From IMG/VR virus record IMGVR_UViG_3300005527_003200: a DNA stretch of 64,000 nucleotides; one strand, 5' to 3'. A model generated the notes under the pieces. It ran no database searches, had not been told where the DNA came from, and saw nothing but the letters and a program-made list of their open reading frames with translations. The stretch comes from a virus. Its lineage: Duplodnaviria > Heunggongvirae > Uroviricota > Caudoviricetes. Positions 9,137 through 60,030 of this stretch are shown here, piece after piece; the stretch's first letter is position 1, and each line of letters starts with the position of its first letter. The position numbers and the translations under genes were made by a program.

Positions 9137-10210
9137 ATGGACACTGATCTTTACCACGACATTTACACTAGCGAAATTTTTGACACCAGCCAATGCATAT
9201 GGCACGAAAATAATACCATGAATTTCTTTCACAGTTTGTTGATCAAACTGGGATATGAGCCTGTGCAAGATGGACACAAAACATGGCGCCGTGGAGACCG
9301 TACTGTGGTGCTGTGTCTGGTAGACGACTACATCTCTACCACATACGACTATGACACACCAGTGGCATATCGATTTGATCGCAATACCACAGTGATCACA
9401 GACAACTATGTTACCAGTCCAACCTTGTACAAGGTGTTTCAACTGCCATCCAGTTTCTTTGGCATCTATCATTATGAACCCAAGCTGACCAATTTCAATC
9501 CCACACGCAGATTTAATTTTTCAGTCAATCGCATTGATTCCAAACGCATGTTGACCATGCTGGAAATTGCGTTGCGTTGTGAAAAGTATCCAGATGCTGA
9601 AACGTTGGACTTTATCAATTTCAACTGCTGGAGTTGGGAAGGTGACAATTCCACAGCTGAAGGATGCAATCAAAATTTCAGAGATGCCTACGAAAAACTA
9701 GAGCCACAATACAAAGCAGTGTATGGTGACACTTTTGAACGCATTGCTCAAACCATGCCATTTAAAAATCATGACATGTCAGTTGAGCAGGCACACCTCA
9801 GTGCTTATGTGAACATGGTAATTGAAACCTACTCCAGTGACAGTTCAATTGCTCTCAGCGAGAAGATATTCCGTGCATTGGTCACTCCGGCACCCTGGCA
9901 AGTGTATGCTGGCCGCCATGCAGTGGCCTATCTGGAAAGTCTAGGATTTGACACACTCAAAGACATTGTCAATCACAGTTACGATGTCATGATGGAAAAC
10001 AAAACTGCTGCCTATGGTGACAAACTGGTTGAATACATCTTTGCTGGCGCAGATACATTTACCAAACTCAGTGCTATGGATCGCACAGAACTGCGACATC
10101 GTTGCCTTACTGCCAGCAGACAAAATCAAAAGGTGCTCAAAGACATGAGTGCTCGTTGGCCTGCAGAGTTTGCCGCTTGGTTGCCGGCTGTTATAGACCA
10201 TATCAAATAA
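9137..10210 (+). CDS. Putative glycosyltransferase, GT10-like (alpha-1,3-fucosyltransferase-type C-terminal motif), paralogue A
   Basis: Its C-terminus (ETYSSD...SEKIFRAL...PWQVYAG...LGFDTLKDIVNHSYD) resembles the GT10 FEN...TEK...PVV motif. It is shared with the genes at 12398, 28080 and 49134. The listed ORF was trimmed to its first ATG. Confidence 0.5.
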   Translation: MDTDLYHDIYTSEIFDTSQCIWHENNTMNFFHSLLIKLGYEPVQDGHKTWRRGDRTVVLCLVDDYISTTYDYDTPVAYRFDRNTTVITDNYVTSPTLYKVFQLPSSFFGIYHYEPKLTNFNPTRRFNFSVNRIDSKRMLTMLEIALRCEKYPDAETLDFINFNCWSWEGDNSTAEGCNQNFRDAYEKLEPQYKAVYGDTFERIAQTMPFKNHDMSVEQAHLSAYVNMVIETYSSDSSIALSEKIFRALVTPAPWQVYAGRHAVAYLESLGFDTLKDIVNHSYDVMMENKTAAYGDKLVEYIFAGADTFTKLSAMDRTELRHRCLTASRQNQKVLKDMSARWPAEFAAWLPAVIDHIK

Positions 10211-10211
10211 C

Positions 10212-11753
10212 ATGTGTGGTGTTCTATACGTAAAAAGCACCACTGATATACCGCTAGAAAAGCACAACCAAGCTCTAGAAATTTTAAAAGATCGCGGTCC
10301 AGATTTTACCTGTTACCAACATCATGGTCGTGTGTTCTGTGCGCAAACAGTTCTGCACATCACTGGCAACACACAATTTTACAATCGACAGTCAGATGAT
10401 TTTTTTGCATTCAATGGCGAAATCTACAACTATCGCTGGTTTGGTTCCTACAGCAACGACACTGAGCTGATGTATCGTGCTGTAAAAGACGCACCAGTAA
10501 AAAAACTCAAATACTTTGAAGGACCGTGGGCGTGGGTGTATGCTCAAGGCGACCAAGTGATATATGCCACTGATCCACAAGGCGAAAGATGCCTGTACAG
10601 ATATCAAGACAACAACATACTGATTGTGAGTTCTGAGGTGGCAGCTATTTTGGTATACATCCGACCAAAATTACAAGACATTGATTACACAACCAAACAC
10701 TATCCAATTTGGCAAAACACGCCTTGGCAAGGAATTGAACGATGTGTGCCAGGTGTGATGTATGATCAGTCGGGCAACACCACAGTGATTGACAGTATCT
10801 TTTCATGGGCCAAACCCAGTAGTATTCAAACATTGGACCAGGCCTGGGAAGAATATCAACCCTTGTGGGAACGGGTAATCACTGACATGCGGCCAGAAAC
10901 ATCTTATGCCTGCACATTCAGTGGTGGGCTTGATTCTGGCGTGGTTGCAAAAAGTCTTCCACAAAGTCAGCACTATTATACCACCAACATGCTGGGCAAA
11001 GACCCAGTGAGTGAACAATCTCAACGTATGTTGGAAGGCAGTCAACGAGACAAAATCATCAACATTGGTGTTACAGAACAGCAATGGGCCGATGCATTTG
11101 AGCAAGTGTGTCGTCGCACACTGATGCCAGTTCAAAGCTACAGTTTTGTTGGCCAGTGGATAATTGCTCAACACTGCAAAGAACGTGTGTTGTTTACTGG
11201 TGTAGGCGCTGATGAACTGTTTGGTGGCTATGGCGTTTACTCACAGCTTGAATACACCACACAAACAAGTGCAAGTCCTTACAGTTCATTTGGCAATGAC
11301 ACTCACGCTCAACAACTGTGGCAACAATGTTTGCATGCACATCAAGGTCAAGCAGAGCCAGCCACTCTGTTGATGGATTATATCACTCAAATTTGTGCAA
11401 TAGACATGCGTGGCATTGACGTTTGTACCATGGCACATGGCATTGAACCACGCTCGCCATTTGTGCATCCTAAGATCATTCGGTTTGCACTTGGCCTTCC
11501 CATGCACCTGAGGCGCGGCAAACCTTTGATTCGTCGACAGTTTTTGGCCTCCTGGCCTGAAGAAATGATACTTCCCAAAAAAGGATTCACTGGACATTGC
11601 AATGATTCATTGCCTTGGATGAAATTCACTGTGCCAGATCAGGCTCGGGCACCACAGTGGAAGCAAATTGTCAAAACTGGATTTAGATATTATGCCAATC
11701 AATATCTTGATCAAACCACTCAGGACTTATCCGCACATGCGGATGTTGCTTGA
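10212..11753 (+). CDS. Asparagine-synthetase-B-like glutamine amidotransferase (class-II GATase plus PP-loop ATP pyrophosphatase)
   Basis: Cys is the first residue after the initiator Met. A PP-loop SGGLDS is present, and the C-terminal MAHGIEPRSPF matches the AsnB E.R.PFLD motif. Confidence 0.75.
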   Translation: MCGVLYVKSTTDIPLEKHNQALEILKDRGPDFTCYQHHGRVFCAQTVLHITGNTQFYNRQSDDFFAFNGEIYNYRWFGSYSNDTELMYRAVKDAPVKKLKYFEGPWAWVYAQGDQVIYATDPQGERCLYRYQDNNILIVSSEVAAILVYIRPKLQDIDYTTKHYPIWQNTPWQGIERCVPGVMYDQSGNTTVIDSIFSWAKPSSIQTLDQAWEEYQPLWERVITDMRPETSYACTFSGGLDSGVVAKSLPQSQHYYTTNMLGKDPVSEQSQRMLEGSQRDKIINIGVTEQQWADAFEQVCRRTLMPVQSYSFVGQWIIAQHCKERVLFTGVGADELFGGYGVYSQLEYTTQTSASPYSSFGNDTHAQQLWQQCLHAHQGQAEPATLLMDYITQICAIDMRGIDVCTMAHGIEPRSPFVHPKIIRFALGLPMHLRRGKPLIRRQFLASWPEEMILPKKGFTGHCNDSLPWMKFTVPDQARAPQWKQIVKTGFRYYANQYLDQTTQDLSAHADVA

Positions 11754-12399
11754 AATATTTTTCAACCCAATCCAAGCATTGTGATTCGCTAGGAGTCACT
11801 GACCTAGTGCGAGAACTGTTGAATTCATACCAGTACAACCCGTATGGTGCCTGAGAATCTGTAAATCTAAAAGTAAACAACTGTCCGGGATCTGCTCCGC
11901 ACAGTTTGGCAAATCTATCAAAAGTTGTGATTGGTTCAAAGTCTGAATACAAGTGTGCTCGACTGTGATGTGTGGTAATAAATCCTGGCACAGTTTGTAT
12001 TTCGGGCAATCGTTCTAGACATCGCAATCGTGAATCTCCATTGCCAGCAAGATATGTGCCATCACCCTGATCTAACACCAAAAATGGTTTTATAATGCCC
12101 TGTGCTCGTATGTCTCGTATCCACATGTTGAGCTTGACAAGATTGGCAATGTCATAGTGATTGCGCGGCTCAGCTAGAAACCCTGCTGGCCCATCATGAT
12201 CTAGCCACTGATTGGCCCATTCGCAAAGATCATTCAGTCGTTGGTTGGTTGAAAAGTGTCGAAATTCGCAACTGGGATTCCAGAACAAGCAATGCATGCC
12301 TTGATTTGAACTGATCTGAATGGGATCTTGTTTGCTGGGCCAGTGAAATTCCACAAGAGGATTATTCCAATACATAGATCTACTTAGTAAATAGGTCAT
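11683..12399 (-). CDS. Hypothetical protein on the opposite strand, possibly ParB/sulfiredoxin-like (GNGDSRL)
   Basis: It is a 238-codon ORF in an otherwise unassigned 640-nt gap. Its start codon overlaps the divergent start of the gene at 12398. Confidence 0.4.
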   Translation of the reverse strand: MTYLLSRSMYWNNPLVEFHWPSKQDPIQISSNQGMHCLFWNPSCEFRHFSTNQRLNDLCEWANQWLDHDGPAGFLAEPRNHYDIANLVKLNMWIRDIRAQGIIKPFLVLDQGDGTYLAGNGDSRLRCLERLPEIQTVPGFITTHHSRAHLYSDFEPITTFDRFAKLCGADPGQLFTFRFTDSQAPYGLYWYEFNSSRTRSVTPSESQCLDWVEKYFKQHPHVRISPEWFDQDIDWHNI

Positions 12400-13357
12400 G
12401 GACTATACATCTTTGTTTGCCAACACACTCTCTGGCTTGGGGTTTGATCTGCATGCAGTTTACAACTGCTTTGATCCGCCATATCGTCCAGAAACTGGTT
12501 GGCCGTTAAAGTTGCCCAACATTGAATTCAAACACAACACACTGCTGTTGTTGCATTTTCAAGATTTCATAACACCATGTCAGGGTCGCATACTTGAACT
12601 GGAACAAGTAGAACGCCACTATGGCGCCAATGCACATCGTGTGCTGGTAACTTATTGGAGTCATAATTTACAAAAATACTATCAAGGACCAGTGAACCTT
12701 ATCGAATTCAGCAATCACAACATGGCCACTGTGACTGCTATCCAAGCTCGTGAGTCACAATGGACCAATTCAATAAATGCAAAAACTTCAGCATGGCAAT
12801 GCCTCAATGGTCGCATGTGCTTGCATCGTCGACGTGCTGTGGACATCTTGCAACATTGGCCTAATGGTGTGTTAAGTTACGGCAACGACATTCCACTTGA
12901 TGCTTGGGCTTATGACACCTATCGCGGCACAGAAAACGAAGATAACTTCATGCGACTGTTGCCGGTATATGCAAAATGTCAAGTGAACATTGTGACTGAA
13001 ACACAGTATGATGAGCCGCCAGGCATTGTGAGCGAAAAAACATTGATGGCGATGATTGCACAGCAGGTACCCATTGTGATTGGTCACCAAGGTATTGTGC
13101 AAGACTGTAGAGAGCTTGGGTTTGACATGTTTGACGACCTGGTGGACACCAGCTATGATAGCATGTCCAATGACGTTCGAGTCGAACAAGCCATAATGAA
13201 AAATCAAGATCTCATACTGGGAAAAATTAACCTTGCGCCATACCAAGAGCGACTGCAAAAACAAAGAAGTTTTTTGCTTGATGAATTTATAACTGGCACA
13301 CAACAACGGTACATTCAAGACGTTGAACAGTTGGCTAAAAAACTAAGTGCGATTTAA
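12398..13357 (+). CDS. Putative glycosyltransferase, GT10-like, paralogue B
   Basis: It has the C-terminal motif NIVTETQYDE...SEKTLMAM...PIVIGHQG...LGFDMFDDLVDTSYD. Confidence 0.5.
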   Translation: MDYTSLFANTLSGLGFDLHAVYNCFDPPYRPETGWPLKLPNIEFKHNTLLLLHFQDFITPCQGRILELEQVERHYGANAHRVLVTYWSHNLQKYYQGPVNLIEFSNHNMATVTAIQARESQWTNSINAKTSAWQCLNGRMCLHRRRAVDILQHWPNGVLSYGNDIPLDAWAYDTYRGTENEDNFMRLLPVYAKCQVNIVTETQYDEPPGIVSEKTLMAMIAQQVPIVIGHQGIVQDCRELGFDMFDDLVDTSYDSMSNDVRVEQAIMKNQDLILGKINLAPYQERLQKQRSFLLDEFITGTQQRYIQDVEQLAKKLSAI

Positions 13358-14024: not shown

Positions 14025-14240
14025 CTAGGTGTTTTTGAAGCTTCCGCCTGCGAGTTCTACCGTAATCACTTCATTGGAATTTGTAGCAGTGTTTGACCGT
14101 AGTTCTTCCAAAGTTACCAATAGCTTGGTAATGTCTGCATGCAGATCCTTAGCGTCACGAAGTGTCATGATAAAATCACGTTGGTTGCGTGACTCATGCG
14201 CCTTGATAGAATCAACAAATCGGTGTATGTGTAAACTCAT
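14025..14240 (-). CDS. Hypothetical protein (71 aa)
   Basis: It shares an ATGA-type overlap with MazG. Confidence 0.45.
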   Translation of the reverse strand: MSLHIHRFVDSIKAHESRNQRDFIMTLRDAKDLHADITKLLVTLEELRSNTATNSNEVITVELAGGSFKNT

Positions 14241-14605
14241 TTTTTAAGATATGGGTTGAGATCAGGTGGCGTCCAGCCTACAGGTTTGAGTACCTTACCA
14301 TCTTCGCGCTTGCGAACCTTGCCGGTGTCTCGATCAATCTTGGCAAAGTTAGTTTTCATGACTTCTTTCCAAGCACCTTCGGCATCTGCGCCCATACTGT
14401 GTAATGCACCAATAGTAACAACCAAAATGTCAATAAGTGCATCAACAGTTTCGACTTGGTCGTGTGCTGTGATTGCATCAGCCAATTCGTTGGCTTCTTC
14501 TTCAATCAATGTAACATACAAGTTAAATTGATCTTTGTTAAACTCGTTGACACTTTGGTCGCAAGCCTTCATAAATTTTTCTTGATCTCTAAACGGATTG
14601 GTCAT
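14237..14605 (-). CDS. mazG: MazG-family nucleoside triphosphate pyrophosphohydrolase
   Basis: It carries an EEEANELADAI (EExxE) motif. The start was trimmed to MTNPFRD to remove the overlap with the methyltransferase. Confidence 0.7.
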   Translation of the reverse strand: MTNPFRDQEKFMKACDQSVNEFNKDQFNLYVTLIEEEANELADAITAHDQVETVDALIDILVVTIGALHSMGADAEGAWKEVMKTNFAKIDRDTGKVRKREDGKVLKPVGWTPPDLNPYLKK

Positions 14606-15228
14606 AAGTTCTCCCGAAGTTCCCAAAGTGCTACCCAGCCATTAGATTTTGGAAAATAACTGGTTTGTAATTTATGTGATATTTTTAAATCATATCCCAT
14701 ATTTGACAGTGATTGATTAATAATAAAGAAGGGAGTTTTAAAATTGACCCCACAATGCTTCCAAGATTTTCGAAGTTGTCTCGACCCGCTGATATTAATA
14801 TCTTCTGGTAGATAAGCTAACGGATGCTCGGCAGTTACACAATCAAGCATTATGTATTTTGGTGTATTATAATTTACAAATAGTTCCAACAGATGCAATG
14901 AACTATGATGATGATACAACACACCAAAACAAATTACAACATCAAATGGTTTAGCATCTCTCATAAGCCAAACATCATCAACCACAACTTTGTCTACTCC
15001 AGGAATATCTTCTAATGTAGATTGGTGAACTATATTCCCTTCAATGCATTCTAAGTAACATGGTGCATGTTTTGCAATTAATTTAGTGTGTTTTCCAACA
15101 TGCGGCCCTACTTCAAGTACTCGAGCATTAGCACATACCTTCAAATAGTTTTCATCTATAAAATTATAATATTCAGTCTCATTACCAGTAACAGTTTTTA
15201 CATCTTCTTTAAAGTCATAAGGATGCAT
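14602..15228 (-). CDS. Class I SAM-dependent methyltransferase
   Basis: Motif I reads VLEVGPHVGKHT, followed by an acidic post-I residue. Confidence 0.6.
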   Translation of the reverse strand: MHPYDFKEDVKTVTGNETEYYNFIDENYLKVCANARVLEVGPHVGKHTKLIAKHAPCYLECIEGNIVHQSTLEDIPGVDKVVVDDVWLMRDAKPFDVVICFGVLYHHHSSLHLLELFVNYNTPKYIMLDCVTAEHPLAYLPEDINISGSRQLRKSWKHCGVNFKTPFFIINQSLSNMGYDLKISHKLQTSYFPKSNGWVALWELRENL

Positions 15229-15658
15229 TTGCTTGCTCCTCGGTGTAAAATGGTCCTTGATAGGTATAACGTTCTAGCACAATTAGTTTGGGATTCTGTA
15301 GCACTTTCCAACTGCGATGTTGTTTGATCGAATACCATCCGGCAGCAAACCATGATTTGCTTTTGGTTGTTTTGGTAAACAACGGCAATTTTAACTGCAC
15401 ATTCCACATGCCATTGTGTGTTCGGCAACCTGTAGGATAACCATGCACACAATCTTTTGGAATAGGCGTGACATGTTCTGGTTCAGCAAATTCAATGTTG
15501 GCCTGTCGGCGCAACATTCGAATGGTTTTAAATTTAGCAACCTTGTTGCGGATGGTAAGAGCAAACCCACCATCTACAGCTTGAACGTTGCCAATTTTTT
15601 CATCGTCTTGTTTGAGTATCCAGTATTGATTGTCAATTACCGGTTTTGCTACTATCAT
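15215..15658 (-). CDS. Hypothetical protein (147 aa)
   Basis: It is operon-consistent. Confidence 0.5.
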   Translation of the reverse strand: MIVAKPVIDNQYWILKQDDEKIGNVQAVDGGFALTIRNKVAKFKTIRMLRRQANIEFAEPEHVTPIPKDCVHGYPTGCRTHNGMWNVQLKLPLFTKTTKSKSWFAAGWYSIKQHRSWKVLQNPKLIVLERYTYQGPFYTEEQANASL

Positions 15659-16689
15659 TTTAACACTCCTTGATATGTTTGATTCAGCCAGCGACCAATT
15701 GGTTCGGCTTGGTCACTCAGCTTGGTAAGCTCATACTTGCCACAGAACTTGAGAAAGTGTGCGCCCACCATCCCTATGTCTTTGTTACTGACTTGTTCAC
15801 CAATCACAGCATCCACAGTATCTTTTACTTCTTGTGGTTGTGCAGTAAGGTCAATTAGTGTGACATTGCGTTCGTAGTCTTCGAGCACCTTGTGTTCTTT
15901 TTCTTCGTGGTCGGTCCAACGTTGCAACATGAGATTGTTCCAATTGTAGCCTTTTTTGTTGCGATCTTCAAATGCTTCTGTAATGCCTACACGATTCTTT
16001 GTGCCTTTTACTGGTGCACCAGGGTATGCTGAGAACACATTGTCGCCGGGATCACCGCGCACACATTTCAAGAACAGCACCCATTTCTGATAGTCAGTTG
16101 GGGCCACAAAGCTCCGGTCGGCTTTGCCTACTTTGATCTTTGAATTGCTTTCGATTGTGAAACTCAATTTGTTGCCTTTGGCATCAGTTACGCCATCAAT
16201 ACTGAACAGGTGGTCGTTTATGCCATTGTACAATTGCACATTTGGTGCAACCAACTGAACGAAGTCTGAATCACTGCTGACAATAATATGTTCATCTTGG
16301 GGGTGTAGTGCAATCCAGCGGCCTATGATATCGTCCGCTTCTGCTGTTGCGCAACGAATCACGCTACAATTTGTTTTCTCAGACAAGTATTTAGTCAGCT
16401 CATCATAGGTTTCCCAAAACAACTTGTCCTCTTCTGCTTCAGTTTCACTCATGGCACCACGGGCCACAGCACGATTAGCTTTGTAGGGCTTGTAGTGATC
16501 TTTACGCCAGCTACGCCCTTCTAGTGCAAAAACCACATGGTCTACACCAAAACGCCTAGCTACTTTATTTGCACTCATCATGGTCAAGTGCAGTGCAAAG
16601 CCTAATTTAGTCCATGTGTCGCTGGCCCTGTGTGCTGAATGGCGGGCACGGAAAAACATGTTAGCAGTATCAATCAGTAGATATTTCAT
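15655..16689 (-). CDS. rnh: T4-type RNase H / 5'-3' flap endonuclease (FEN family)
   Basis: The N-terminal LLIDTANMFFR and the acidic clusters IVSSDSDF and GDPGDN match the T4 rnh layout. Confidence 0.8.
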   Translation of the reverse strand: MKYLLIDTANMFFRARHSAHRASDTWTKLGFALHLTMMSANKVARRFGVDHVVFALEGRSWRKDHYKPYKANRAVARGAMSETEAEEDKLFWETYDELTKYLSEKTNCSVIRCATAEADDIIGRWIALHPQDEHIIVSSDSDFVQLVAPNVQLYNGINDHLFSIDGVTDAKGNKLSFTIESNSKIKVGKADRSFVAPTDYQKWVLFLKCVRGDPGDNVFSAYPGAPVKGTKNRVGITEAFEDRNKKGYNWNNLMLQRWTDHEEKEHKVLEDYERNVTLIDLTAQPQEVKDTVDAVIGEQVSNKDIGMVGAHFLKFCGKYELTKLSDQAEPIGRWLNQTYQGVLK

Positions 16690-17398
16690 TAGGGCGGTCC
16701 AGAAGTTTGTGTTCCTTCAAGTATTGTAACACATATTCCGACCAAAATCTATGACCATCGGCTCCAAAGTGATAACTTTTGGGATTCACATGCTCAAATC
16801 CGTTGTTTTTTAGTATGGCATTCCAACTGTGGTCTCTTGAATATGGCTCAATGTAATGCCCTTGCCAATCTCTTAGATTAAATAAATCACTAAATGTACT
16901 GTTGCCACTGTAGAATAAATGTCGTACATTTAGATCTTTCAACCGACAATGCAGGTGCCATATTTTGTTATGCCATTCATCTGTTTTTTGAGTCCAGTTG
17001 ACATCCAAAATGTACTGACGATACCTATCTTCAAGCTCTGGTGGTACCATGTCCACACCACTGGCGTTTACTTGATAGCATCGGCCTTCATACTCCCATT
17101 CTTCTCGTTCCCAAGTGGTCCATTGGATTACCATCACAGTGTCATACAAACGGCTATAGTTCTCATGAATCCACTTGTTAGTGGTACGCAGTATGCGGTC
17201 ATTGCTGGCTGCTGACTCAGCATCACAGTAAAATTCAGTGTTGAGCATTCGGCTCAATTGCTTGCCCCAGCTGGCTTCCAAGTTGATTGGATGAGGTCTA
17301 CGGTCAATGCCATATCTACCATCATCCACAGCAAAGCAATCAGGCACCACTGCTTCGGCAGCCGCTGTATGGCTGCATCCATTTACATACAAGATCAT
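16670..17398 (-). CDS. SGNH/GDSL-like hydrolase paralogue 1 (GCSHT block I)
   Basis: It has an N-terminal VNGCSHT and a C-terminal GADGH(R)FW (DxxH-like block). Confidence 0.5.
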   Translation of the reverse strand: MILYVNGCSHTAAAEAVVPDCFAVDDGRYGIDRRPHPINLEASWGKQLSRMLNTEFYCDAESAASNDRILRTTNKWIHENYSRLYDTVMVIQWTTWEREEWEYEGRCYQVNASGVDMVPPELEDRYRQYILDVNWTQKTDEWHNKIWHLHCRLKDLNVRHLFYSGNSTFSDLFNLRDWQGHYIEPYSRDHSWNAILKNNGFEHVNPKSYHFGADGHRFWSEYVLQYLKEHKLLDRPNEISTD

Positions 17399-32526: not shown

Positions 32527-32533
32527 CAGCCAC

Positions 32534-38084: not shown

Positions 38085-38085
38085 A

Positions 38086-38808: not shown

Positions 38809-38841
38809 TTTGTATACTCCTAATGTTTAAGTTTAACAGGT

Positions 38842-47164: not shown

Positions 47165-47186
47165 TAAGTGGGTCTATAAATATTGC

Positions 47187-48233: not shown

Positions 48234-48276
48234 ATAAAGATCTACAACAATTCATGAATCAAATTGTCAACTTGTT

Positions 48277-51562: not shown

Positions 51563-52404
51563 TCAAGTTCCCAAGCAGCAAAATGGCCGCGATCAATCAA
51601 CAACATCTTAAATGCAGTTTTTTGTTCTGGTAACATTTTTGACCAAGCATTTCGATGAATACTCACTGTGAGAGCATTTTTATCACGCATGAGTTCAAGT
51701 TTCTTATCAAACTGGTCAACTTCGCTATGACAAACATTTACCACACCGCCAAGTGTGTTTTGTTTGGTATAAAAATGATCCAAATGTCCATACTTGTATT
51801 GACAAAATCCTGAGTACAACATGAATTCTGTCAGCATGCCTTGGCGCTGAAACCATGTGGGAAAACTTTCATGTGTTTTGATTGTGGTATCAGCAATCAT
51901 AAAGCGTACAGTGTCATTGTGGAAGAAAAATGGCACACCGCCAGGGCCAGCTTGTTTGGTCATGTTGATGTCAAACAGCTGATCCACAATGTTCTTACTG
52001 GGTTTAAAAACATCAAATATATCCAATTGTCCCACAGTAAGCTGACCTTGTTCGTTAACCAATTTGGATATTTCCAAGGGTCTAACAAATATAGTCTTGG
52101 CGTCTAATACCATGGTGTAGACATTGTAACTTATAGACGCGGTGAGAAGTTTTAGAATCTGCTGGCTTACCCAGCCGTTTGCTATCCAAGCACTGCTGAA
52201 TGCTGTGCGCGGCACTACCAAGACAGAGCTTGCTAGATCACCCCACCATGCTGGATCAATTTTTTCCGCTAGGGTTTCGTAATCATTGAGCACCACATAG
52301 ATATTTCTTATGCCTATGTTGCGACAATAATTGTTTATGCTTTGTGCCTGAATTTTAAGGATCGGCAGTTCCTGTTCAAATACTACTGTGCAGATATCAA
52401 TCAT
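51559..52404 (-). CDS. Hypothetical protein (281 aa)
   Basis: It shares an ATGA overlap with the deacetylase. Confidence 0.5.
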   Translation of the reverse strand: MIDICTVVFEQELPILKIQAQSINNYCRNIGIRNIYVVLNDYETLAEKIDPAWWGDLASSVLVVPRTAFSSAWIANGWVSQQILKLLTASISYNVYTMVLDAKTIFVRPLEISKLVNEQGQLTVGQLDIFDVFKPSKNIVDQLFDINMTKQAGPGGVPFFFHNDTVRFMIADTTIKTHESFPTWFQRQGMLTEFMLYSGFCQYKYGHLDHFYTKQNTLGGVVNVCHSEVDQFDKKLELMRDKNALTVSIHRNAWSKMLPEQKTAFKMLLIDRGHFAAWELE

Positions 52405-54982: not shown

Positions 54983-57900
54983 TTATTTATTGCGTTTGGC
55001 TCGAGCCCGTCCAGCCTTCATGTTGGCCATCCAGTGTGCCAATTGTCCTTTGCGACCGCCTTGTTTGGCCACTTTACGCAGGGTGCTTACTGATGCTTTG
55101 GTGGGCACGCCGTGTCGCTTTGAATCGCCTTTGTCTTGGGGATTCCGACCGTCAGCAAAGTTTTCACCTACGTTGTATGTGGGATCAGTTTTTTGACGCT
55201 TGATGCCAGCAGGTTGATTGGGATCTACAGGATCAATGTCAGTGGTGGTTAACCCTAGTTTTTCCAACTGCTTGATGTATTCATGTTCAAGATCTTCGTC
55301 GCCAAAACTCACAATAGTACTGGGTGGTCCTTTGCCAAAATCGTCAGTGTTATCTCTGTCTAAGTTAGCAATGTTCTTGCCCAACTTGTACCAGTCATAC
55401 ATGTCTGACACATCCACTCGCACAGTGCCCGCTGGCATTGTGGGTCGGCTTTCAGGACCAGGAGGATCAAAGTTTCCGTAGCGATCCTTGCCTTCGGCTA
55501 CACCTTCTGTCATGATTGGCACAACTTCAAAGCCTTCGCCTGACACTCCCCGACCATTGTTTCGCAACCATTGAGCCGCTACACGGTTAGCATCGCCTTG
55601 ATTGTTGCCCACGCCTGAAAATCTATGAACTTCTTCACCATTGACCAACACCTTCCATGCACCAGAGAATGTGCCTGGCGTGGCTCGCTGTTGTGCCAAG
55701 GCTGCTGTGCTTCCAGGGTAGACCACCTCTATATCTGGTTCAATGTCAATGATACCACCCGATGCTGCATCTGCAGGCCGATCCCATTGTTCAGTATCCA
55801 CCACCATGTAGTCAGCAGCAACCACATTGTTTCTAGCAGCCCAGGCTTGGAGAACATATCTGCCTTGTGCCTGTTCCGCTGGATTGCCCATGTTAAATCT
55901 AAACTGATAGTCAGGTGCTGGGCCAGTAAAACTGCCATACAGGCCTGGATCCGAGCGTAGCACAATGGCATAGCGACCGTTGGGGTCATTGGGGCGGCCA
56001 CCACCTTGAGAACCTGGCGGTGCAGTAAAGGCACTAGCTGTGTCGTCGTCTTGTGTAGATTGTGCATCCAAATTATACGGACGCACAGGTTCAGCCACAA
56101 TAGATTGTCGTGTGTTGGCCCAAGACGGATAGCCATCATCCCCCAAGGCTTTTTCAATGGCTTCTTCTCGAGAGGTGGCAACAACTTCTACACTGGCATA
56201 ACTATTGCCAGGATTGGAAACGTTCCACCACATCTTTTCACCGCTTGTTTTATTACGCTCCGTCTTGCGTTGTAGTTGTGCTTGCTTGACAAAACTACGC
56301 AAGGCAGCCTTGGGAATCTTGCCAGCCACATAGTCAGCAAAGTATCGGATTGTGTCTGACCCTTTTTGATCCTGAGTCAACAGTTTGTATAGTTTCTTTT
56401 GATACTCTTCTCGATAGGCTTCAGGGTTAAGTGCTGCACTCATGGCCACTGTGAAACGCAACAGAGTGTTTTCAATCTTGTCAAAGTTGTCATCCAGCCA
56501 GTCACCACCCGGCGAACGGAATTCAATGTGTCCGCTCTTGGTGTTGATTGATGTGTACTTGTCTGTGCTGCCTGAATGGATGGCCTTGGAAGCCAGTTCA
56601 CCCATTTGACCTTTCATCTTGTCCAGCAAACGCTGTGCGTCTTCGGGGTTGGACCGCACACGATCACGCACCTTGCCTAGTGCTGATTTGGTGTAGGTAT
56701 TGGAACTGCGACCAAATTGTTTGAGCACATACTCGTCGCCCAACAGCAAGGCCAGTTTTACATAGTCCAAACGATCTAAACTGTAGTCAGGCACTGATAT
56801 GTTGATGTGCAGGCCAGTCGAACTGTTGGTATAAACGCCCATGCGTCCAGCCCAGGCCTTCACGGCATTTAAATCTTTCAGCAGTTCATCTATGGGCATG
56901 GGCGGGCTCACAAACTCCAAGCCTTCGTCGCCGTCATTGTCGCCTTCCAAACTGGCGTCTGGTTCTACTACATAGAATTGATTGTTGGGTCCAGGTCTGT
57001 CGCCGGACTGATGATATCTTGTGTTCACTCGCACTTCACGACCCACAGCCTGACTGAATTCGTCAGCCACTTGATCTGCGTCAATCTCGCCGCTGTTCAT
57101 GCTAGTCCAGTAGGGCCAATTCATTCCATACATTTGCTCAACCTCACTCATTCTGTCAAGGTCTGTGGCGTCTAACCAGTCGCTTTCGTCATAATTTTCT
57201 TGGAATTCTTCCCGCCATTCATCAAAGGCTTCATTGTAGTAAGTACTCGAAGGATCAGCGTCTACATTGGCTGCAAATTCATCAAATGCTTCGTTTCGTT
57301 CATCACCAGTTAACTCGTTAGGATTCCATTCATCTTCATTTACATTATTCCGAAGCCAGTCACGAATGTAATCTTGGCTTTCACCGCCCCAGTCATCGCG
57401 AAGTTTTTCATCCAGCCATTCCTGGAAATCGTCCTGCATTCTTTCACGCAGGCGTTCAACATCTCTACGGCCGTTGTAGTCGCCATCATGAAAGAATCGC
57501 ACAGCATCATCAATGCTAACACAGCGTTCATCCTGATCATAGTCTGGTTCCATTTCAGGATCTTCGGATTCCATACCAGGCACAATCATTTCAAATTCCA
57601 TGCCAGCAATGGCACCTGTTTTGGCAGCTTCCCTGCGCAAATTTTTGCTGCCCATGTTTATTTCAAACAGGTCTTGTTCTTCAAACAGTTCAAATTCTTG
57701 TGCTAGACTTTCTGCTAACTTTACCTTGCCATCTGCTCGCAACAGTTGTGGATGGCCTTGCGAATCAGTGGCCAGTCGCATCTTGTTGGCTTCTGTGCCA
57801 GTTTGTCCTGGATGCACATCCACACTCAGTGCCATTTCAAATCGAGGATCGTTGCGTTCGGCCCAGGTGGGAATGTATCCAGATGACTCACGAATGTCTT

Positions 57901-59152
57901 CATGGTCAAACAGTTCTGGGTGTGCATCAGCAAAGTCTCGCATGATAATGCCAGCCACAGCGTTTGCTTCGTTCTCCACAGGAGAGCCTGTGTTGCCAGA
58001 TGTGTGATCCAATTGTTCTAATTCCTGTTGGCGGCAGTGTGCCAGTTCGTGTGCCACAGTGCGAAGAATATCCATCACATGTCGATCGCGCAGATTCACA
58101 TGCAAAACATGCAGCTCTGGTTGGTACATGCCAAATGAACGATTTTGTTCACTCCATCCGTCATTGTCATGTAGTACAATTTCAGGCATGCGTTCAATGC
58201 CCAAGCGTTCAGCAGTGTCTTGAATAAACTGTTGCACCATGCTCTCAGTGTCATCTTCATTCAAGAACATTTGTGTGCTGGCAGCAACACCATCTTCTGA
58301 ACTGTAGGGTTGTCCTTGATGGCCTTCGCGCATGCTTTCGCCACCACCACCGTCACCACCTTCGCCTGATTCTCCTCCGTAGCCAAATCCAGGAGACCAA
58401 TAGCTGCCAAATCCATAACGCACTCGGGATTTCTTTTTTCGGCGTTCTTGTAGACTCAGCTCGTGATCTTGTGCGGCTGTTCTAGCTGTGCGCAAATCCT
58501 TGATGCAACCTTTGTTACGCAGGATTTTGAACACAATGTTTTCACACCCAAACTCGCCGTGAGCATCCAAGCCACTTTGGCGCATGGCCTTGATCTTGTC
58601 CCACAGTCTGCTCATGGATTCAGCGTTGCCAGATTCAATTGCTGAATGTATTCTAGCATCCAAATCTTCGACCTTGGCTCGCACACAGGTGTCGTCAATT
58701 CTGGCACGTTTTCTGCGTGGCACTTGAATCCATTCGTCACGTGGGATAGAATACTCACCTTGACTCACAGGAGACTCGGCTGCATTTTGCACATACAGTT
58801 CCACAGGCACGCCGCCGATGCTCAACTTGTGTTCATCGTTATATTGGTATTTTTTGGCATTGAACAGTTCCTGATAAACTTCGTCGTCAGCAGGAAACTC
58901 CACCACAAGGTGTAGATCAATGTCGGAATATGGGGTATAGCTGTAGGCAGCATTACTGCCTGAGATGGTTATGTCACGGACGTCAAGGTCACCTACGCCA
59001 AGAAATTCGCGAAAATTGTCAGCAATGGCCAACAGCTTTTCGCGTACTTCGGGTAACAATTGCTCGTCCCTGCCCCAGATTTTAGGGTTGAGACGATTGT
59101 GAAACTTTACAGCATCACTCAGCTTGAAGGAATCCAGTTCGTTGATGTTCAT
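54983..59152 (-). CDS. Giant multidomain protein (1389 aa): minimal nucleotidyltransferase (GS...D.D) plus HExxH...E zinc-metallopeptidase; candidate injected polyvalent protein
   Basis: It has ITISGSNAAYSYTPYSDIDLHL (the Pol-beta-type NTase signature) and VAHELAHCRQ followed by ENE (gluzincin-like). A Gly-rich linker and a basic C-terminus are present. Confidence 0.6.
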   Translation of the reverse strand: MNINELDSFKLSDAVKFHNRLNPKIWGRDEQLLPEVREKLLAIADNFREFLGVGDLDVRDITISGSNAAYSYTPYSDIDLHLVVEFPADDEVYQELFNAKKYQYNDEHKLSIGGVPVELYVQNAAESPVSQGEYSIPRDEWIQVPRRKRARIDDTCVRAKVEDLDARIHSAIESGNAESMSRLWDKIKAMRQSGLDAHGEFGCENIVFKILRNKGCIKDLRTARTAAQDHELSLQERRKKKSRVRYGFGSYWSPGFGYGGESGEGGDGGGGESMREGHQGQPYSSEDGVAASTQMFLNEDDTESMVQQFIQDTAERLGIERMPEIVLHDNDGWSEQNRSFGMYQPELHVLHVNLRDRHVMDILRTVAHELAHCRQQELEQLDHTSGNTGSPVENEANAVAGIIMRDFADAHPELFDHEDIRESSGYIPTWAERNDPRFEMALSVDVHPGQTGTEANKMRLATDSQGHPQLLRADGKVKLAESLAQEFELFEEQDLFEINMGSKNLRREAAKTGAIAGMEFEMIVPGMESEDPEMEPDYDQDERCVSIDDAVRFFHDGDYNGRRDVERLRERMQDDFQEWLDEKLRDDWGGESQDYIRDWLRNNVNEDEWNPNELTGDERNEAFDEFAANVDADPSSTYYNEAFDEWREEFQENYDESDWLDATDLDRMSEVEQMYGMNWPYWTSMNSGEIDADQVADEFSQAVGREVRVNTRYHQSGDRPGPNNQFYVVEPDASLEGDNDGDEGLEFVSPPMPIDELLKDLNAVKAWAGRMGVYTNSSTGLHINISVPDYSLDRLDYVKLALLLGDEYVLKQFGRSSNTYTKSALGKVRDRVRSNPEDAQRLLDKMKGQMGELASKAIHSGSTDKYTSINTKSGHIEFRSPGGDWLDDNFDKIENTLLRFTVAMSAALNPEAYREEYQKKLYKLLTQDQKGSDTIRYFADYVAGKIPKAALRSFVKQAQLQRKTERNKTSGEKMWWNVSNPGNSYASVEVVATSREEAIEKALGDDGYPSWANTRQSIVAEPVRPYNLDAQSTQDDDTASAFTAPPGSQGGGRPNDPNGRYAIVLRSDPGLYGSFTGPAPDYQFRFNMGNPAEQAQGRYVLQAWAARNNVVAADYMVVDTEQWDRPADAASGGIIDIEPDIEVVYPGSTAALAQQRATPGTFSGAWKVLVNGEEVHRFSGVGNNQGDANRVAAQWLRNNGRGVSGEGFEVVPIMTEGVAEGKDRYGNFDPPGPESRPTMPAGTVRVDVSDMYDWYKLGKNIANLDRDNTDDFGKGPPSTIVSFGDEDLEHEYIKQLEKLGLTTTDIDPVDPNQPAGIKRQKTDPTYNVGENFADGRNPQDKGDSKRHGVPTKASVSTLRKVAKQGGRKGQLAHWMANMKAGRARAKRNK

Positions 59153-59169
59153 ACGAACTGTATTTACCG

Positions 59170-60030
59170 TTACTTGGCTGTAGCTGGTTCTTCCACGGGC
59201 ACAACATCCACAGGGGTGCTGGATGCCATGATTTCAGGCTCAGTTATATCAACTGGTTGCTTGGCTGCATCATGTGCATTGGCAATCTTAGGAGCAGCAA
59301 TAGCATGCAAGTCTTGGTACAACTTGTCCTGTGTTTGCGCATCAAACACATAGGTGCCCACGTGTTTCAACAACACACGTTTGTCGATATACACTTTGCC
59401 GCCTAGATCACGCCAGTTTTCGCAGAATGTCCAGTCTTCTGAATAGTAGCGGTTTTCACGCACAGCAGTGTCAAAGTAGGTTTTCATGTACTTGTCCAGC
59501 GCAGGATCTAGACCAATGTCATTGTTGAAATGACGCACAGCAGGGTGTGCATTCAGTTTGTCAAACACATCTTTCTTGATCAACAAGAATCCTGTGCCAG
59601 TCTTGGTAACTTCTACCAAGTTGTCCACGCCTTCTTCTTGACCTGGAATGCCATTCACACACCATTTAACTGGCAGTGATTTCATGGGATACAATCCACC
59701 AATCACATCCACTTGGCGATTTAGCAACACCAACAAATGCCAGGGTTCCCAGCCAATGTCCGCGTCAATAAACATCAAGTGTGTTGAACCTTCTGTATTC
59801 AAAAACTTTGCAGTCAGAGTGTTTCTAGCACGACTAATCAAACTTTCATTAGTCATGGTTTCTACAGTCCAATCAATGCCTAGTTGTCGGCAGGTATTGC
59901 CCCATTTGATAAAACTCATGAATGTTGCTTCTGTCAGCTGGCCCCCATAACAGGGCATACAGATGTGAACACGAGTGGTTTTTAGATATTCAAGGTCGAC
60001 TTGAATTTGAACTTGTTGTGGCTCTGCCAT
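59170..60030 (-). CDS. GT-A-fold glycosyltransferase-like protein
   Basis: It has an N-terminal Rossmann-like ICMPCYGG and a FIDAD acidic motif. Confidence 0.45.
   Translation of the reverse strand: MAEPQQVQIQVDLEYLKTTRVHICMPCYGGQLTEATFMSFIKWGNTCRQLGIDWTVETMTNESLISRARNTLTAKFLNTEGSTHLMFIDADIGWEPWHLLVLLNRQVDVIGGLYPMKSLPVKWCVNGIPGQEEGVDNLVEVTKTGTGFLLIKKDVFDKLNAHPAVRHFNNDIGLDPALDKYMKTYFDTAVRENRYYSEDWTFCENWRDLGGKVYIDKRVLLKHVGTYVFDAQTQDKLYQDLHAIAAPKIANAHDAAKQPVDITEPEIMASSTPVDVVPVEEPATAK

Follow-up and report, generated by a model that had tools for sequence, protein, structure and literature searches.

Genes assigned to 7-deazaguanine chemistry lie among many sugar-chemistry genes in a virus genome from IMG/VR (IMGVR_UViG_3300005527_003200), which raises the question of whether both groups serve one DNA-modification system. 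The window, i.e., the whole stretch of DNA that was analysed, is 64,000 nucleotides long. Its source is an uncultured freshwater jumbo (giant) myovirus that has Phosso, Atu_ph07, and PA5oct among its relatives. A preliminary description had treated the deazaguanine genes and about 25 sugar enzymes over 9-60 kb as one system. Its observation is largely real and was partly confirmed, and its interpretation is partly supported.

The window covers a replication-module slot with DNA polymerase and clamp genes on one edge and RNase H on the other. By family search, the polymerase edge (38086-42443, minus strand) comprises a family-B DNA polymerase (PolB, 39783-42443), h334, and a clamp-like 240-aa protein. 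PolB shares 51% identity with the Phosso polymerase, and the clamp-like protein is the counterpart of the Phosso 'sliding clamp'. The RNase H / 5'-3' exonuclease at the opposite edge (15655-16689, minus strand; PF02739, 8e-20) has orthologues in PA5oct, Phosso, and the marine sister loci L094 and L096. The equivalent slot is empty in Atu_ph07 (4 kb), and its length ranges up to 27 kb. The slot could be an insertion hot spot for unrelated cargo, which is a caveat to the main reading. A MazG-type NTP pyrophosphohydrolase, a candidate for dGTP clearance, was predicted at 14237-14626 (minus strand; PF01503, 1e-11), and in phage phiST a MazG-like gene adjoins DpdL (PMC10516641). The span is more than a sugar island, as it also contains genes for PolB, clamp-like, RNase H, MazG, HIT, HhH-GPD, ferritin, and structural-type proteins. 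Promoter and terminator scans gave nothing above chance and thus no support for co-transcription. Most genes had been described as coupled by ATGA overlaps; the count was 16 ATGA and one TTGA, i.e., 17 of 52 same-strand junctions or about one third.

The deazaguanine pathway genes are encoded on the minus strand. GTP cyclohydrolase I (FolE) was found at 26659-27351 (PF01227, 2.8e-39), QueD, the CPH4 synthase, at 23515-24021 (PF01242 PTPS, 5e-16), and QueE, the 7-carboxy-7-deazaguanine synthase, at 18443-19288 (phrog_2076 'QueE-like', 5e-55; NCBIfam QueE models). A YhhQ/Vut_1 transporter is located at 22877-23497 (PF02592, Vut_1, 2e-21). These four assignments of the preliminary description were borne out by family matches. 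Relatives were counted only where their flank was sufficient, hence the denominators differ. FolE is present in 28 of 30 relatives, QueD identity among relatives reaches 100%, and QueE gave tblastn matches in 180 phage records. The transporter is variable (4/30) and was also found in the cluster of Vibrio phage 2.275.O. The best sigma-70-like site (27422-27394) is directly upstream of FolE, in a scan that was overall not above chance.

A QueD paralogue at 32773-33216 (minus strand) was assigned by motif and homology as DpdL, the proposed 7-carboxy-7-deazaguanine decarboxylase. Its motif, LGTPHRHIF, fits LxxxHRHxF, which defines DpdL (PMC10516641). It matches phrog_17812 (7e-36), shows tblastn identity to Phosso (68%), ACP17 (55%), PA5oct (53%), and phiST (32.5%), of which ACP17 and phiST encode the proteins on which the definition of DpdL is based, and is present in all 57 relatives. 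QueC, QueF, and Gat were searched in the window and none was found. With DpdL present and QueC absent, the system is of the DpdL type, i.e., a QueC-less branch, rather than the preQ0 pathway that had been assumed. Both DpdL and the absence of QueC had been overlooked.

The product of 35791-37329 (512 aa, minus strand), earlier called dpdA, is a candidate for a divergent DpdA/TGT-family DNA transglycosylase. It showed no direct match in Pfam, PHROG, NCBIfam, or PDB sequences, and hhalign against DpdA3 of phiST was without significance. A tie to phage TGT/DpdA-like proteins is supported indirectly, through remote homology, synteny, and a weakly matching fold. In hhalign, it was aligned to the TGT-like proteins of BUDD, ACP17, and BUCT-ZZ01 (probability 93%, E 3e-7). 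The top Foldseek matches of its low-confidence model (pLDDT 58) were 1j2b, ArcTGT (archaeosine TGT), and 7ui4, DpdA. The motifs DSGGFQ, LD-IP, HFLG, and SFDCASPF occur without variation, and synteny with queuosine-pathway genes was found in three phage lineages. The candidate has more than 7000 metagenomic homologues and is present in 83/83 related loci.

The gene at 30608-31822 (minus strand) encodes a GT4-like GT-B glycosyltransferase of 404 aa, as had been claimed. Its profile matches GT4 enzymes among PDB sequences, its homologues carry PF00534, and hhalign to ACP17 gp124 gave a probability of 100% (E 6e-43). The AF2 model (pLDDT 75) had 306 GT-B structural matches at E<=1e-3. Among these were T4 alpha-GT (1y6f) and, at rank 49, the BH4 glucosyltransferase 5zes, and the ACP17 enzyme was the second-best viral match. 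An R..EKQP segment and one Glu of the C-terminal domain, both usual in active GT-B enzymes, do not vary within the family.

This GT-B enzyme is a conserved companion of DpdL/DpdA. Six cultured phage lineages with differing gene orders have a member of the family next to DpdL, DpdA, or both, among them the phages PA5oct, BUCT-ZZ01, BUDD/X1, Phosso, and ACP17. The same neighborhood was found in 78 of 80 IMG/VR loci, a sample mostly of one marine clade, and both misses were cut by contig ends. A DpdA homologue lies beside the gene in 41 of 45 genome-assembly loci, about 35 of them alphaproteobacterial, and four metagenome contigs picked by the glycosyltransferase alone also carry DpdL/DpdA next to it. 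Minimal clusters with the glycosyltransferase and no further glycan gene were found in ACP17, L095, L097, and Methylobacterium and Magnetospirillum loci. Many prophage loci contain the pair of DpdA and glycosyltransferase without FolE or QueE. In Vibrio phage 2.275.O, the cluster is of the QueC/QueF type and lacks the glycosyltransferase, although its DpdA is of the same type. The DNA of PA5oct is resistant at G-containing restriction sites, and its modification is chemically unidentified (PMC12191111).

Among the relatives of the window, a fixed order of DpdA, h177, DpdL, GT-B, and GalE is kept, nearly always with mini-DegT and FolE. GT-B was found in 45/45 relatives. The h177 gene (33213-33746, minus strand) was without match in family searches and was assigned as a partner by conservation. 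It is present in 63/63 relatives and in the marine sister loci L094 and L096, and its ACP17 homologue, gp122, is located between FolE and DpdA. The UDP-glucose/galactose 4-epimerase, GalE (29649-30611, minus strand; PF01370, 3e-54; PDB GalE, 7e-67 over full length), is present in 30/30 relatives, and its gene overlaps that of GT-B by a 4-bp ATGA. A DegT-like protein had been named, and PF01041 (2.4e-16) confirms it, although this PLP-enzyme homologue has merely 198 aa (29078-29674, minus strand; 29/30 relatives). The mini-DegT keeps the SF..K region, which can be aligned with sugar aminotransferases. A HIT-family nucleotide hydrolase/transferase (24786-25190, minus strand; PF01230, 7.5e-10) is present in 25/30 relatives and adjoins a phosphoribosyltransferase in marine sister clusters. 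In the cluster of the marine sister lineage, a cytidylyltransferase, a phosphomannomutase, and an SDR are placed alongside. Fixed gene order among close relatives can also come from plain inheritance.

Further putative tailoring genes are placed in the array on the minus strand. A GT-A-like glycosyltransferase of 289 aa (21984-22853; phrog_14945 'glycosyltransferase', 3e-9) follows QueD in most relatives reaching that far. Behind it, a B12-binding radical SAM C-methyltransferase (20005-21987; PF02310 and PF04055; NF033712 KedN5 family, 258 bits) recurs, followed by h236 (19292-20002), which was without match in family searches and is SGNH-like solely by an N-terminal motif. The TagD/ECT-like cytidylyltransferase (17395-17991; PF01467, 2.9e-12) has ethanolamine-phosphate (3elb) and glycerol-3-phosphate (1coz) cytidylyltransferases as its closest solved structures in PDB and a 60% identical homologue in marine sister clusters. 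Family or PDB matches agree with the earlier naming of GalE, cytidylyltransferase, FkbM, PIG-L, and B12 radical SAM proteins.

Other genes of the array are variable or rare among relatives, all on the minus strand. The h303 gene (31819-32730; 36/53 relatives) has no family match and is SGNH-like solely by motif. A GDSL/SGNH-like protein (27419-28129), with weak GDSL matches under the cut-off, was found in 0/83 relatives and is limited to the window. Member c of the four 'GT10-like' paralogues (28080-29081) is an orphan assigned by paralogy, with no Pfam or PDB match, and is present in 9/30 relatives. A short HhH-GPD glycosylase-like protein (26252-26662; PF00730, 3.5e-9), ATGA-coupled to FolE, is present in 1/38. 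The inserts between DpdA and h177 (33743-35715) are an FkbM methyltransferase (33743-34720; PF05050, 1e-16; 1/73 relatives) and a 307-aa protein (34792-35715), for which 83 loci gave no match of at least 35% identity and one weak match (25%). A sulfotransferase-like gene (37326-38165), ATGA-coupled upstream of DpdA, is found at >=35% identity in 6/81 relatives. Its assignment is marginal, i.e., PF03567 at 22.1 bits with a cut-off of 22. Elsewhere in the window, a class-I methyltransferase (14602-15228) and a SPASM-type radical SAM protein had weak matches under the cut-offs. The four GT10-like genes are true paralogues, for which no match was obtained to GT10, to other families, or to structures. 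The five SGNH-like proteins, named as paralogues, share an N-terminal GxSxT-type motif and have no mutual similarity. Several 'sugar' assignments are at motif level only.

The outer clusters of sugar genes, at 9-13 kb, 47-52 kb, and 59-61 kb, may make a separate glycan, a role already proposed for such clusters in jumbo phages (PMC7824862). The left cluster (9137-13357, plus strand) contains GT10-like a, an AsnB-type amidotransferase (10212-11753), and GT10-like b, with a ParB-like gene on the opposite strand. The right cluster (47130-52404) contains the SPASM radical SAM gene (47130-48233), two DUF6492 genes, GT10-like d, an SGNH-like gene, and a PIG-L deacetylase (51050-51562, confirmed by family match). 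PolB and structural-type genes lie between it and the array, and in several relatives SPASM, DUF6492, and GT10-like d are again located upstream of ferritin. At 59170-60803 (minus strand), a GT-A-like protein (phrog_1574, unknown function), with a DXD motif recognized by eye, and a second cytidylyltransferase-like gene were found. The idea of one system of about 25 enzymes is not supported in that form, since the outer clusters are encoded on the opposite strand or past replication and structural genes and depend mostly on family calls without confirmation. The functional tie between sugar enzymes and deazaguanine genes is supported by comparative evidence new to that description. The GT-B family is a near-obligate DpdL/DpdA neighbor across unrelated phages and prophages, and the deazaguanine array of relatives always includes GT-B and GalE and almost always mini-DegT.

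The closest known system is the DpdL system (PMC10516641, 2023), which shares FolE, QueD, QueE, DpdL with LxxxHRHxF, a TGT-like DpdA, the lack of QueC, an adjoining DNA polymerase, and a nearby MazG. However, no glycosyltransferase appears in its published description, whereas the window has the constant GT-B and, beyond it, GalE, mini-DegT, GT-A-like, B12 radical SAM, cytidylyltransferase, and variable tailoring genes. In addition, the 512-aa DpdA of the window is a divergent form, not demonstrably DpdA3. Phage ACP17 too encodes a member of the GT-B family, gp124. In T-even DNA glucosylation, alpha- and beta-glucosyltransferases act on 5-hydroxymethylcytosine. A GT-B enzyme in the replication and nucleotide-metabolism region is shared, as is, by proposal, anti-restriction through a post-replicative sugar on a non-canonical base. 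In contrast, the base in the window would be a purine analogue, i.e., a 7-deazaguanine derivative, no hydroxymethylase is encoded, the glycosyltransferase belongs to a GT4-like family and not to the T4 families, and the tailoring enzymes are far more numerous. In vertebrate tRNA, mannosyl- and galactosyl-queuosine are made by GT-B- and GT-A-type transferases. There, as proposed here, a 7-deazaguanine installed by the TGT family is glycosylated from NDP-sugars including UDP-galactose. Its substrate is tRNA and its acceptor a cyclopentenediol, whereas the pathway of the window ends before preQ0 and its target is presumably DNA. Jumbo-phage glycosyltransferase/NDP-sugar clusters (Iyer et al. 2021, PMC7824862) are alike in HIGH-superfamily nucleotidyltransferases, several paralogous glycosyltransferases, polymorphism between strains, and jumbo myovirus context. 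Their description includes no interleaving or co-inheritance with deazaguanine/DpdA genes, whereas the core glycosyltransferase of the window goes along with DpdL/DpdA even where a small phage or a prophage has no other glycan gene.

Those variable clusters have been read as host-surface polysaccharide modification (PMC7824862), and two unrelated functions could share one insertion hot spot, with a known base (e.g., dDG) in DNA and a virion or host-surface glycan that is built or remodelled by the sugar enzymes, GT-B included. We consider this explanation possible but less likely than a glycosylated base in DNA. Besides the known jumbo-phage clusters, the range of slot length, the outer clusters parted from the array and partly on the opposite strand, and the turnover of tailoring genes between strains, typical also for surface-glycan loci, agree with it. 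However, it leaves unexplained the GT-B neighborhood in six lineages and in 78/80 and 41/45 loci with rearranged orders, and the minimal clusters with no further glycan gene.

Two other explanations concern the product and the activity of GT-B. The product could be a soluble metabolite instead of a DNA base, e.g., a glycosylated pterin or a deazapurine nucleoside/nucleotide, biopterin-glycoside- or toyocamycin-like, that serves host takeover or acts as a decoy in the nucleotide pool. The enzyme types of the tetrahydrobiopterin-glucoside route are represented, with FolE, a PTPS-fold protein, an SDR, and a GT-B transferase. The 5zes match points the same way, although it is not superior to dozens of other GT-B enzymes, and so do the phosphoribosyltransferase and HIT genes adjoining the glycosyltransferase in sister clusters and XGPRT in BUCT-ZZ01. 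We consider this unlikely, as QueE and the TGT/DpdA-like enzyme indicate that deazaguanine is put into nucleic acid, many prophage loci have the DpdA-glycosyltransferase pair but neither FolE nor QueE, and in PA5oct the DNA itself is restriction-resistant. Very improbable is a GT-B that serves as a structural or accessory partner of DpdA, like DpdB, with glycosyl transfer lost or never used and the DNA sugar-free. Bacterial DpdA is reported to require a partner protein (PMC10164549), and the closest adjacency of GT-B is to DpdA, in prophage loci. Against this, the active-type residues are invariant across the family, and dedicated sugar-nucleotide genes are placed alongside, i.e., GalE here and phosphomannomutase, cytidylyltransferase, and SDR in sister clusters.

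The best reading of the locus, at about an even chance, is a 7-deazaguanine in DNA that is glycosylated and further tailored. By homology, FolE, QueD, and QueE produce 7-carboxy-7-deazaguanine, and DpdL would convert it to 7-deazaguanine by decarboxylation, as proposed in the literature. The divergent DpdA-family transglycosylase would exchange guanine in DNA for the deazaguanine base, and GT-B may attach a sugar either to the base derived from deazaguanine or to a precursor of that base. UDP-galactose from the translationally coupled GalE is the probable donor. The acceptor is speculative, because 7-deazaguanine, the base of phiST, which lacks the glycosyltransferase, has no obvious hydroxyl acceptor. 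The sugar may be tailored by lineage-specific enzymes, i.e., mini-DegT, the GT-A-like transferase, the B12 radical-SAM methyltransferase, and the cytidylyltransferase, and by the strain-variable FkbM methyltransferase, sulfotransferase-like, GT10-like, and SGNH-like gene products. No published description of a glycosylated-deazaguanine DNA system was found. The outcome would be a diversified bulky purine modification that shields phage DNA from restriction and other nucleic-acid-targeting defences. As the same glycosyltransferase accompanies DNA-modification genes in many phages and prophages, an undescribed sugar-bearing purine in DNA is suggested.

The genes for the deazaguanine precursor were confirmed in the window by Pfam, PHROG and NCBIfam searches, i.e., FolE (26659-27351), QueD (23515-24021) and, by PHROG and NCBIfam, QueE (18443-19288). 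QueC, QueF and Gat were not found by Pfam search of the scanned ORFs of at least 80 aa or by tblastn with the proteins of Vibrio phage 2.275.O; the scope of this absence is the 64-kb window and not the whole genome. The 147-aa product of 32773-33216, which reads ...FLGTPHRHIFHF..., carries the motif LGTPHRHIF. According to Cui et al. 2023, the DpdL signature is the replacement of the QueD motif CxxxHGH by LxxxHRHxF, DpdL is the proposed 7-carboxy-7-deazaguanine decarboxylase, and the absence of QueC is the rule for phages of the DpdL subtype (PMC10516641). By tblastn, the window DpdL was 55% identical to that of phage ACP17 (1e-39) and 32.5% identical to CGPG_00067 of phage phiST (3e-9), and it co-occurs with DpdA, FolE, QueD and QueE, without QueC. 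Because the LxxxHRHxF protein is present and QueC, QueF and Gat were not found, following the published rule, the window system belongs to the DpdL branch and not to the preQ0 branch. The preliminary description had assigned a preQ0 pathway; its FolE, QueD, QueE and YhhQ/Vut_1 genes stand, whereas the pathway does not, with DpdL present and QueC not found in the window. Both DpdL and the missing QueC had been overlooked there.

The 512-aa protein at 35791-37329 showed no direct match in Pfam, PHROGs, NCBIfam or PDB sequences by sequence and profile searches. Its metagenomic homologues number more than 7000; further homologues, annotated as hypothetical, occur in PA5oct-like phages, Phosso and Vibrio phage 2.275.O. 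In the alignment with these phage homologues, the segments DSGGFQ, LD-IP, HFLG and SFDC were invariant, and we take them to resemble the catalytic segments of tRNA-guanine transglycosylases (TGT). The TGT-like proteins of phages BUDD, ACP17 and BUCT-ZZ01 adjoin DpdL; the BUDD protein is annotated as queuine tRNA-ribosyltransferase and the ACP17 protein is gp123. Against a profile of these three, hhalign gave a probability of 93% (E 3e-7, 189 columns, all motifs covered); the match to BUDD alone was weak, and significance was reached only with the three-sequence profile. Against the single phiST DpdA3 sequence (CGPG_00065), the match was not significant (hhalign probability 4.5-5.7%). The AF2 model was poor (pLDDT 58, from a shallow alignment of 78-94% identity), so its two best Foldseek matches in PDB, i.e., archaeosine TGT (E 1e-4) and the DNA preQ0 insertase DpdA, are only supportive. 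The homologue in Vibrio phage 2.275.O heads a compact cluster of QueF, Vut_1, QueC, Gat, FolE and QueD, and the one in PA5oct is placed 3 kb from QueE. The earlier dpdA label can be kept on the motifs, the profile match and this synteny, but as that of a candidate, i.e., a predicted divergent DpdA-family enzyme.

The 404-aa product of 30608-31822 had homologues in BUCT-ZZ01 (64% identity), the PA5oct group and the Xanthomonas phages X1/BUDD, and the 'glycosyltransferase' of Phosso and ACP17 gp124 were added to the family by alignment or hhalign (probability 100%, E 6e-43 for gp124, which is annotated as glycosyl transferase family 1). The window protein had no Pfam match of its own. The family profile matched GT4 chains in PDB at 4e-4, and homologues linked at 100% by hhalign carry PF13692, PF13524 or, in many cases, PF00534. 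Its AF2 model (pLDDT 75, pTM 0.73), for which a diverse alignment was used, gave 306 structural matches in PDB at E of 1e-3 or below. The best 50 of these 306 all have the two-Rossmann-domain GT-B fold. Apart from a few UDP-sugar 2-epimerases, they are mostly glycosyltransferases, among them glycogen synthase, MshA, BshA and SenB, with T4 alpha-glucosyltransferase at rank 37. The ACP17 protein was the second-best viral structural match. The product was assigned, by profile and predicted fold, as a putative GT-B (GT4-like) glycosyltransferase (GT). The ACP17 type has more than 4600 metagenomic homologues. In the cyanophage BUCT-ZZ01, a second and different GT-B with a weak Glyco_trans_1_4 match (UTS52035, 14772-16115 of its locus L007) is placed between FolE and the DpdA-like gene.

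In cultured phages, homologues of the window GT were found only in those carrying DpdL, always beside DpdL or DpdA. All four metagenome contigs selected by GT alone have DpdL, DpdA, FolE and QueE around it. Among 80 IMG/VR loci, DpdL was immediately upstream of GT in 78, the other two being cut by contig ends, and DpdA was found in 74. In genome assemblies, ACP17-type DpdA was within 1-2 kb of GT at 41 of 45 loci. Approximately 35 of these 45 are alphaproteobacterial and probably prophages; they are usually without FolE or QueE nearby, and DpdL is often present. The bacteria with GT and ACP17-type DpdA (L186-L221) include Magnetospirillum, Methylobacterium, Sulfitobacter, Devosia, Pelagibacterium, Ochrobactrum and others. 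The alphaproteobacterial loci suggest a mobile DpdA-(DpdL)-GT module that draws on precursors of the host. Gene order varies between lineages, which argues for selection on the proximity of GT and DpdL/DpdA. The family was found neither in the QueC/QueF-type cluster of Vibrio phage 2.275.O nor in phiST; gene 469 of the former, directly after DpdA, was considered as a member and ruled out by comparison. A phosphoribosyltransferase lies beside the HIT gene in 53/80 of the GT/DpdL loci (L098-L177) and in two marine sister contigs (L094, L096), and BUCT-ZZ01 encodes an XGPRT between QueE and QueD (L007 12855-13316). These genes hint that, besides the DpdA route, the deazapurine may take a pre-replicative one at the level of nucleotides.

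Within the lineage of the window, tblastn comparison of its proteins covered 83 related loci, whose DpdA candidate was 75-83% identical. A fixed order was found, i.e., PolB, h334, clamp-like protein (PolB/clamp-like edge, 38086-42443), DpdA, h177 (33213-33746), DpdL, in some cases h303 (31819-32730), GT-B, GalE (29649-30611), mini-DegT (29078-29674), FolE, HIT (24786-25190), QueD, GT-A-like (21984-22853), B12 radical SAM (20005-21987) and h236 (19292-20002), the h-numbers being labels of proteins. Counting only loci long enough to judge each gene, h177 was present in 63/63 relatives, DpdL in 57/57, GT-B in 45/45 and GalE in 30/30, followed by mini-DegT (29/30), FolE (28/30) and HIT (25/30). 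The third of the GT10-like paralogues, c, was present in 9/30, the sulfotransferase-like gene in 6/81, YhhQ in 4/30, FkbM in 1/73 and HhH-GPD in 1/38. The GDSL-like protein and protein h218 were found by tblastn in 0/83, and the 307-aa protein after DpdA had one weak match (25% identity) among the 83 loci. These counts reveal an invariant sugar core of GT-B and GalE, nearly always with mini-DegT, inside the deazaguanine array, and tailoring genes around it that turn over fast. No family could be given to h177, and its positional counterparts in Phosso ('glycosylase'), BUDD, PA5oct and phiST are not homologous to it.

The slot between PolB and RNase H (15655-16689) differs in size in each relative. 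In a marine sister lineage, with PolB 63% identical to that of the window, it holds a 60%-identical cytidylyltransferase, a phosphomannomutase and an SDR together with DpdA-like, h177, DpdL, GT, phosphoribosyltransferase, HIT, FolE and QueE genes. Phosso has a compact DpdL, GT, FolE and QueE there; PA5oct has DpdA, GT, DpdL, an SDR fragment and QueE; in Atu_ph07 the slot is essentially empty. In the gene-neighbourhood comparison that had been proposed, the conserved core joins sugar and deazaguanine genes beyond the window; FkbM, the sulfotransferase-like gene, GT10-like c and GDSL are rare or missing.

Of the further genes in the preliminary description, YhhQ/Vut_1, GalE, cytidylyltransferase, FkbM, PIG-L, B12-binding radical SAM and DegT-like were borne out by family searches. 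GalE aligned over its full length with solved UDP-glucose 4-epimerases (7e-67), and the cytidylyltransferase was closest to ethanolamine-phosphate and glycerol-3-phosphate cytidylyltransferases. The B12 radical SAM enzyme was classified by NCBIfam as a KedN5-family C-methyltransferase, and the DegT-like protein, of just 198 aa, keeps the PLP-lysine region. The sulfotransferase, SPASM, class-I methyltransferase and GDSL calls scored at or below family thresholds. The four GT10-like proteins (9137, 12398, 28080 and 49134) are paralogues as claimed, but their GT10 membership was not upheld: they matched neither PF00852 nor another Pfam family, their profiles A3 and A9 found no glycosyltransferase in PDB, and no Pfam domain occurred in the 120 listed of 370 homologues. 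Their resemblance to GT10 is at the motif level only. The five supposed SGNH-like paralogues share an N-terminal motif only and formed no pairs in phmmer all-against-all; 27419-28129 had sub-threshold GDSL matches, and 16670-17398 matched DUF6071. Most genes had been called ATGA-coupled, but four-base start/stop overlaps occurred at 17 of 52 same-strand junctions, as is usual for phages. Nor is the span purely one of sugar genes, as it also encodes PolB, clamp-like, RNase H, MazG, HIT, HhH-GPD, ferritin and structural-type proteins. The island was made to look larger than it is by unconfirmed calls and by flanking clusters that are perhaps independent.

An AsnB-type glutamine amidotransferase (10212-11753, plus strand; Asn_synthase 2.6e-23; TIGR01536 138 bits, below cut-off) is placed between two of the orphan paralogues. 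A uronic acid could be its substrate for amidation, as could, speculatively, CDG at the 7-carboxyl. In the latter role it was considered as a QueC substitute yielding 7-amido-7-deazaguanine; it is a gene of the left outer cluster, without comparative support. A short HhH-GPD glycosylase-like protein of 136 aa (26252-26662, minus strand) is ATGA-coupled to FolE. Hypermodified DNA is recognized by END nucleases of hosts by means of an inactive EndoIII/HhH domain (PMC12191111), so this protein could be a decoy or a base-excision helper.

The source of the window is an uncultured jumbo myovirus, given the kinship of its PolB, its tmRNA and tRNAs, its jumbo-phage cargo and abundant relatives on contigs of approximately 350-360 kb. 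Megablast of 20 kb found no nucleotide match among 50,697 phage records. For the family-B DNA polymerase, identity was 51% with Sinorhizobium jumbo phage Phosso, 47% with Agrobacterium phage Atu_ph07 and approximately 42-45% with other jumbo myoviruses. Close relatives, on contigs up to that length, are abundant in JGI samples, which are taken to be from freshwater lakes. On the minus strand at 1380-1898 and 2596-2854, ARAGORN predicted a tmRNA ('tmRNA*', tag peptide ANDEKFLMAA) adjoined by tRNA-Leu(taa), tRNA-Arg(tct) and tRNA-Met(cat). The cargo includes ClpB-like ATPase, ferritin, porin and others. Host-like genes on the minus strand encode a Gram-negative porin (434-1324; Porin_4, 2.8e-25), a fatty-acid desaturase (3313-4077) and an SPFH/Band-7 protein (4534-5328); the porin suggests a Gram-negative host. 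The following genes are also on the minus strand. At the right edge, a ClpB-like AAA+ protein (62491-63957; AAA_2 4e-51 and ClpB D2-small domain) may have been shortened by the ORF start call. Family search gave a 1389-aa protein (54983-59152) a weak nucleotidyltransferase-like N-terminus and an Amidoligase_2 domain (3e-8). Upstream of a conserved ferritin-like gene (46250-46750) are genes for a 514-aa Ala/Gly/Pro-rich low-complexity protein (43994-45538) and an acidic 241-aa protein (45528-46253), both without a family match. A 354-aa protein (42540-43604) matched phrog_25854, whose function is not annotated; its C-terminus, ...GIHCITNDL, by eye resembles the catalytic Cys motif of amidinotransferase/arginine-deiminase-type enzymes. 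The T4 late-promoter motif TATAAATA occurred in the window at chance level, as did the hits of sigma-70 promoter and terminator scans.

The preliminary description was thus mostly right in substance, with several wrong family labels, and its interpretation is partly supported. As judged from homology and gene order, sugar chemistry and deazaguanine DNA modification are tied by a conserved core, and this tie reaches well outside the window. The best reading, to which we give an even chance, is a glycosylated and further tailored 7-deazaguanine in DNA. FolE, QueD and QueE would, by homology, convert GTP to 7-carboxy-7-deazaguanine, which DpdL, as proposed in the literature, would convert further. 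The DpdA-family enzyme would swap the base into DNA, and the GT-B would then glycosylate this base or its precursor. UDP-galactose is the probable donor, given the ATGA overlap of GalE with the GT gene. As 7-deazaguanine has no hydroxyl, C- or N-glycosylation, or action on another DpdL product, would be needed. Mini-DegT, GT-A-like, B12 methyltransferase, cytidylyltransferase and the variable methyl-, sulfo- and acyl-type enzymes may decorate the sugar, and MazG may deplete dGTP, as suggested for phiST. A broader version, in which a widespread and so far unnoticed DpdA-DpdL-GT triad introduces into phage DNA a base that is derived from 7-deazaguanine and glycosylated, and in which rapidly diversifying tailoring enzymes of abundant freshwater jumbo phages elaborate the sugar further (epimerised, aminated or acylated, C-methylated, perhaps sulfated or phospho-alcohol-substituted), is held as a whole somewhat more tentatively.

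It is possible, though rather unlikely, that the sugar genes make a glycan of the virion or host surface and that the slot is merely an insertion hot spot. The outer clusters (9-13 kb, 47-52 kb and 59-61 kb) would fit this reading, which agrees with published views of jumbo-phage GTase clusters; jumbo-phage surface-polysaccharide clusters combine an NDP-sugar nucleotidyltransferase with multiple paralogous GTases and vary between strains, and the window fits this pattern. However, a hot spot leaves the linkage of DpdA/DpdL and GT across lineages unexplained. A soluble glycosylated pterin or deazapurine as the product is improbable, and a GT that serves as a non-catalytic partner of DpdA is more improbable still.

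A glycosylated 7-deazaguanine in DNA would differ from the described systems. Phage 7-deazaguanine modification shares FolE, QueD and QueE with the window; QueC or Gat-QueC, which as a rule is missing in the DpdL subtype, was not found there. T4-type DNA glucosylation needs hmC or hmU from a phage pyrimidine hydroxymethylase, whereas the scanned window proteins had no thymidylate-synthase-like or hydroxymethylase family match. To our knowledge, all known phage DNA glycosylations are on hydroxymethyl-pyrimidines, and all eight known DNA 7-deazaguanines have small C7 substituents or none. No published description of a glycosylated deazaguanine in DNA, or of such a system in papers on ACP17 or DpdA5, was found in the literature. 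Iyer et al. 2021 reported a deazaguanine synthesis and incorporation system in PA5oct and jumbo-phage GTase clusters as separate items. DpdL and DpdA3/4 were defined by Cui et al. 2023, who mention no glycosyltransferase and report that DpdL and DpdA alone gave no dDG in E. coli expression (PMC10516641). This failure may be explained by the omission of the conserved neighbours GT and h177. PA5oct, with a homologous cluster, resists G-site restriction enzymes and carries a G modification that a 2025 preprint left unidentified (PMC12191111); a sugar on the base may explain why it remains so.

The prediction can be tested directly in five cultured phage groups, and the family is very abundant in metagenomes. 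If true, this would be the first purine hypermodification of DNA to bear a glycan, and a deazapurine carrying a sugar would open up a new chemical class of such modifications. It could supply enzymes for DNA labelling and would bear on nanopore base-calling of environmental phage DNA, as well as on how these phages evade restriction, CRISPR, glycosylases and END nucleases.
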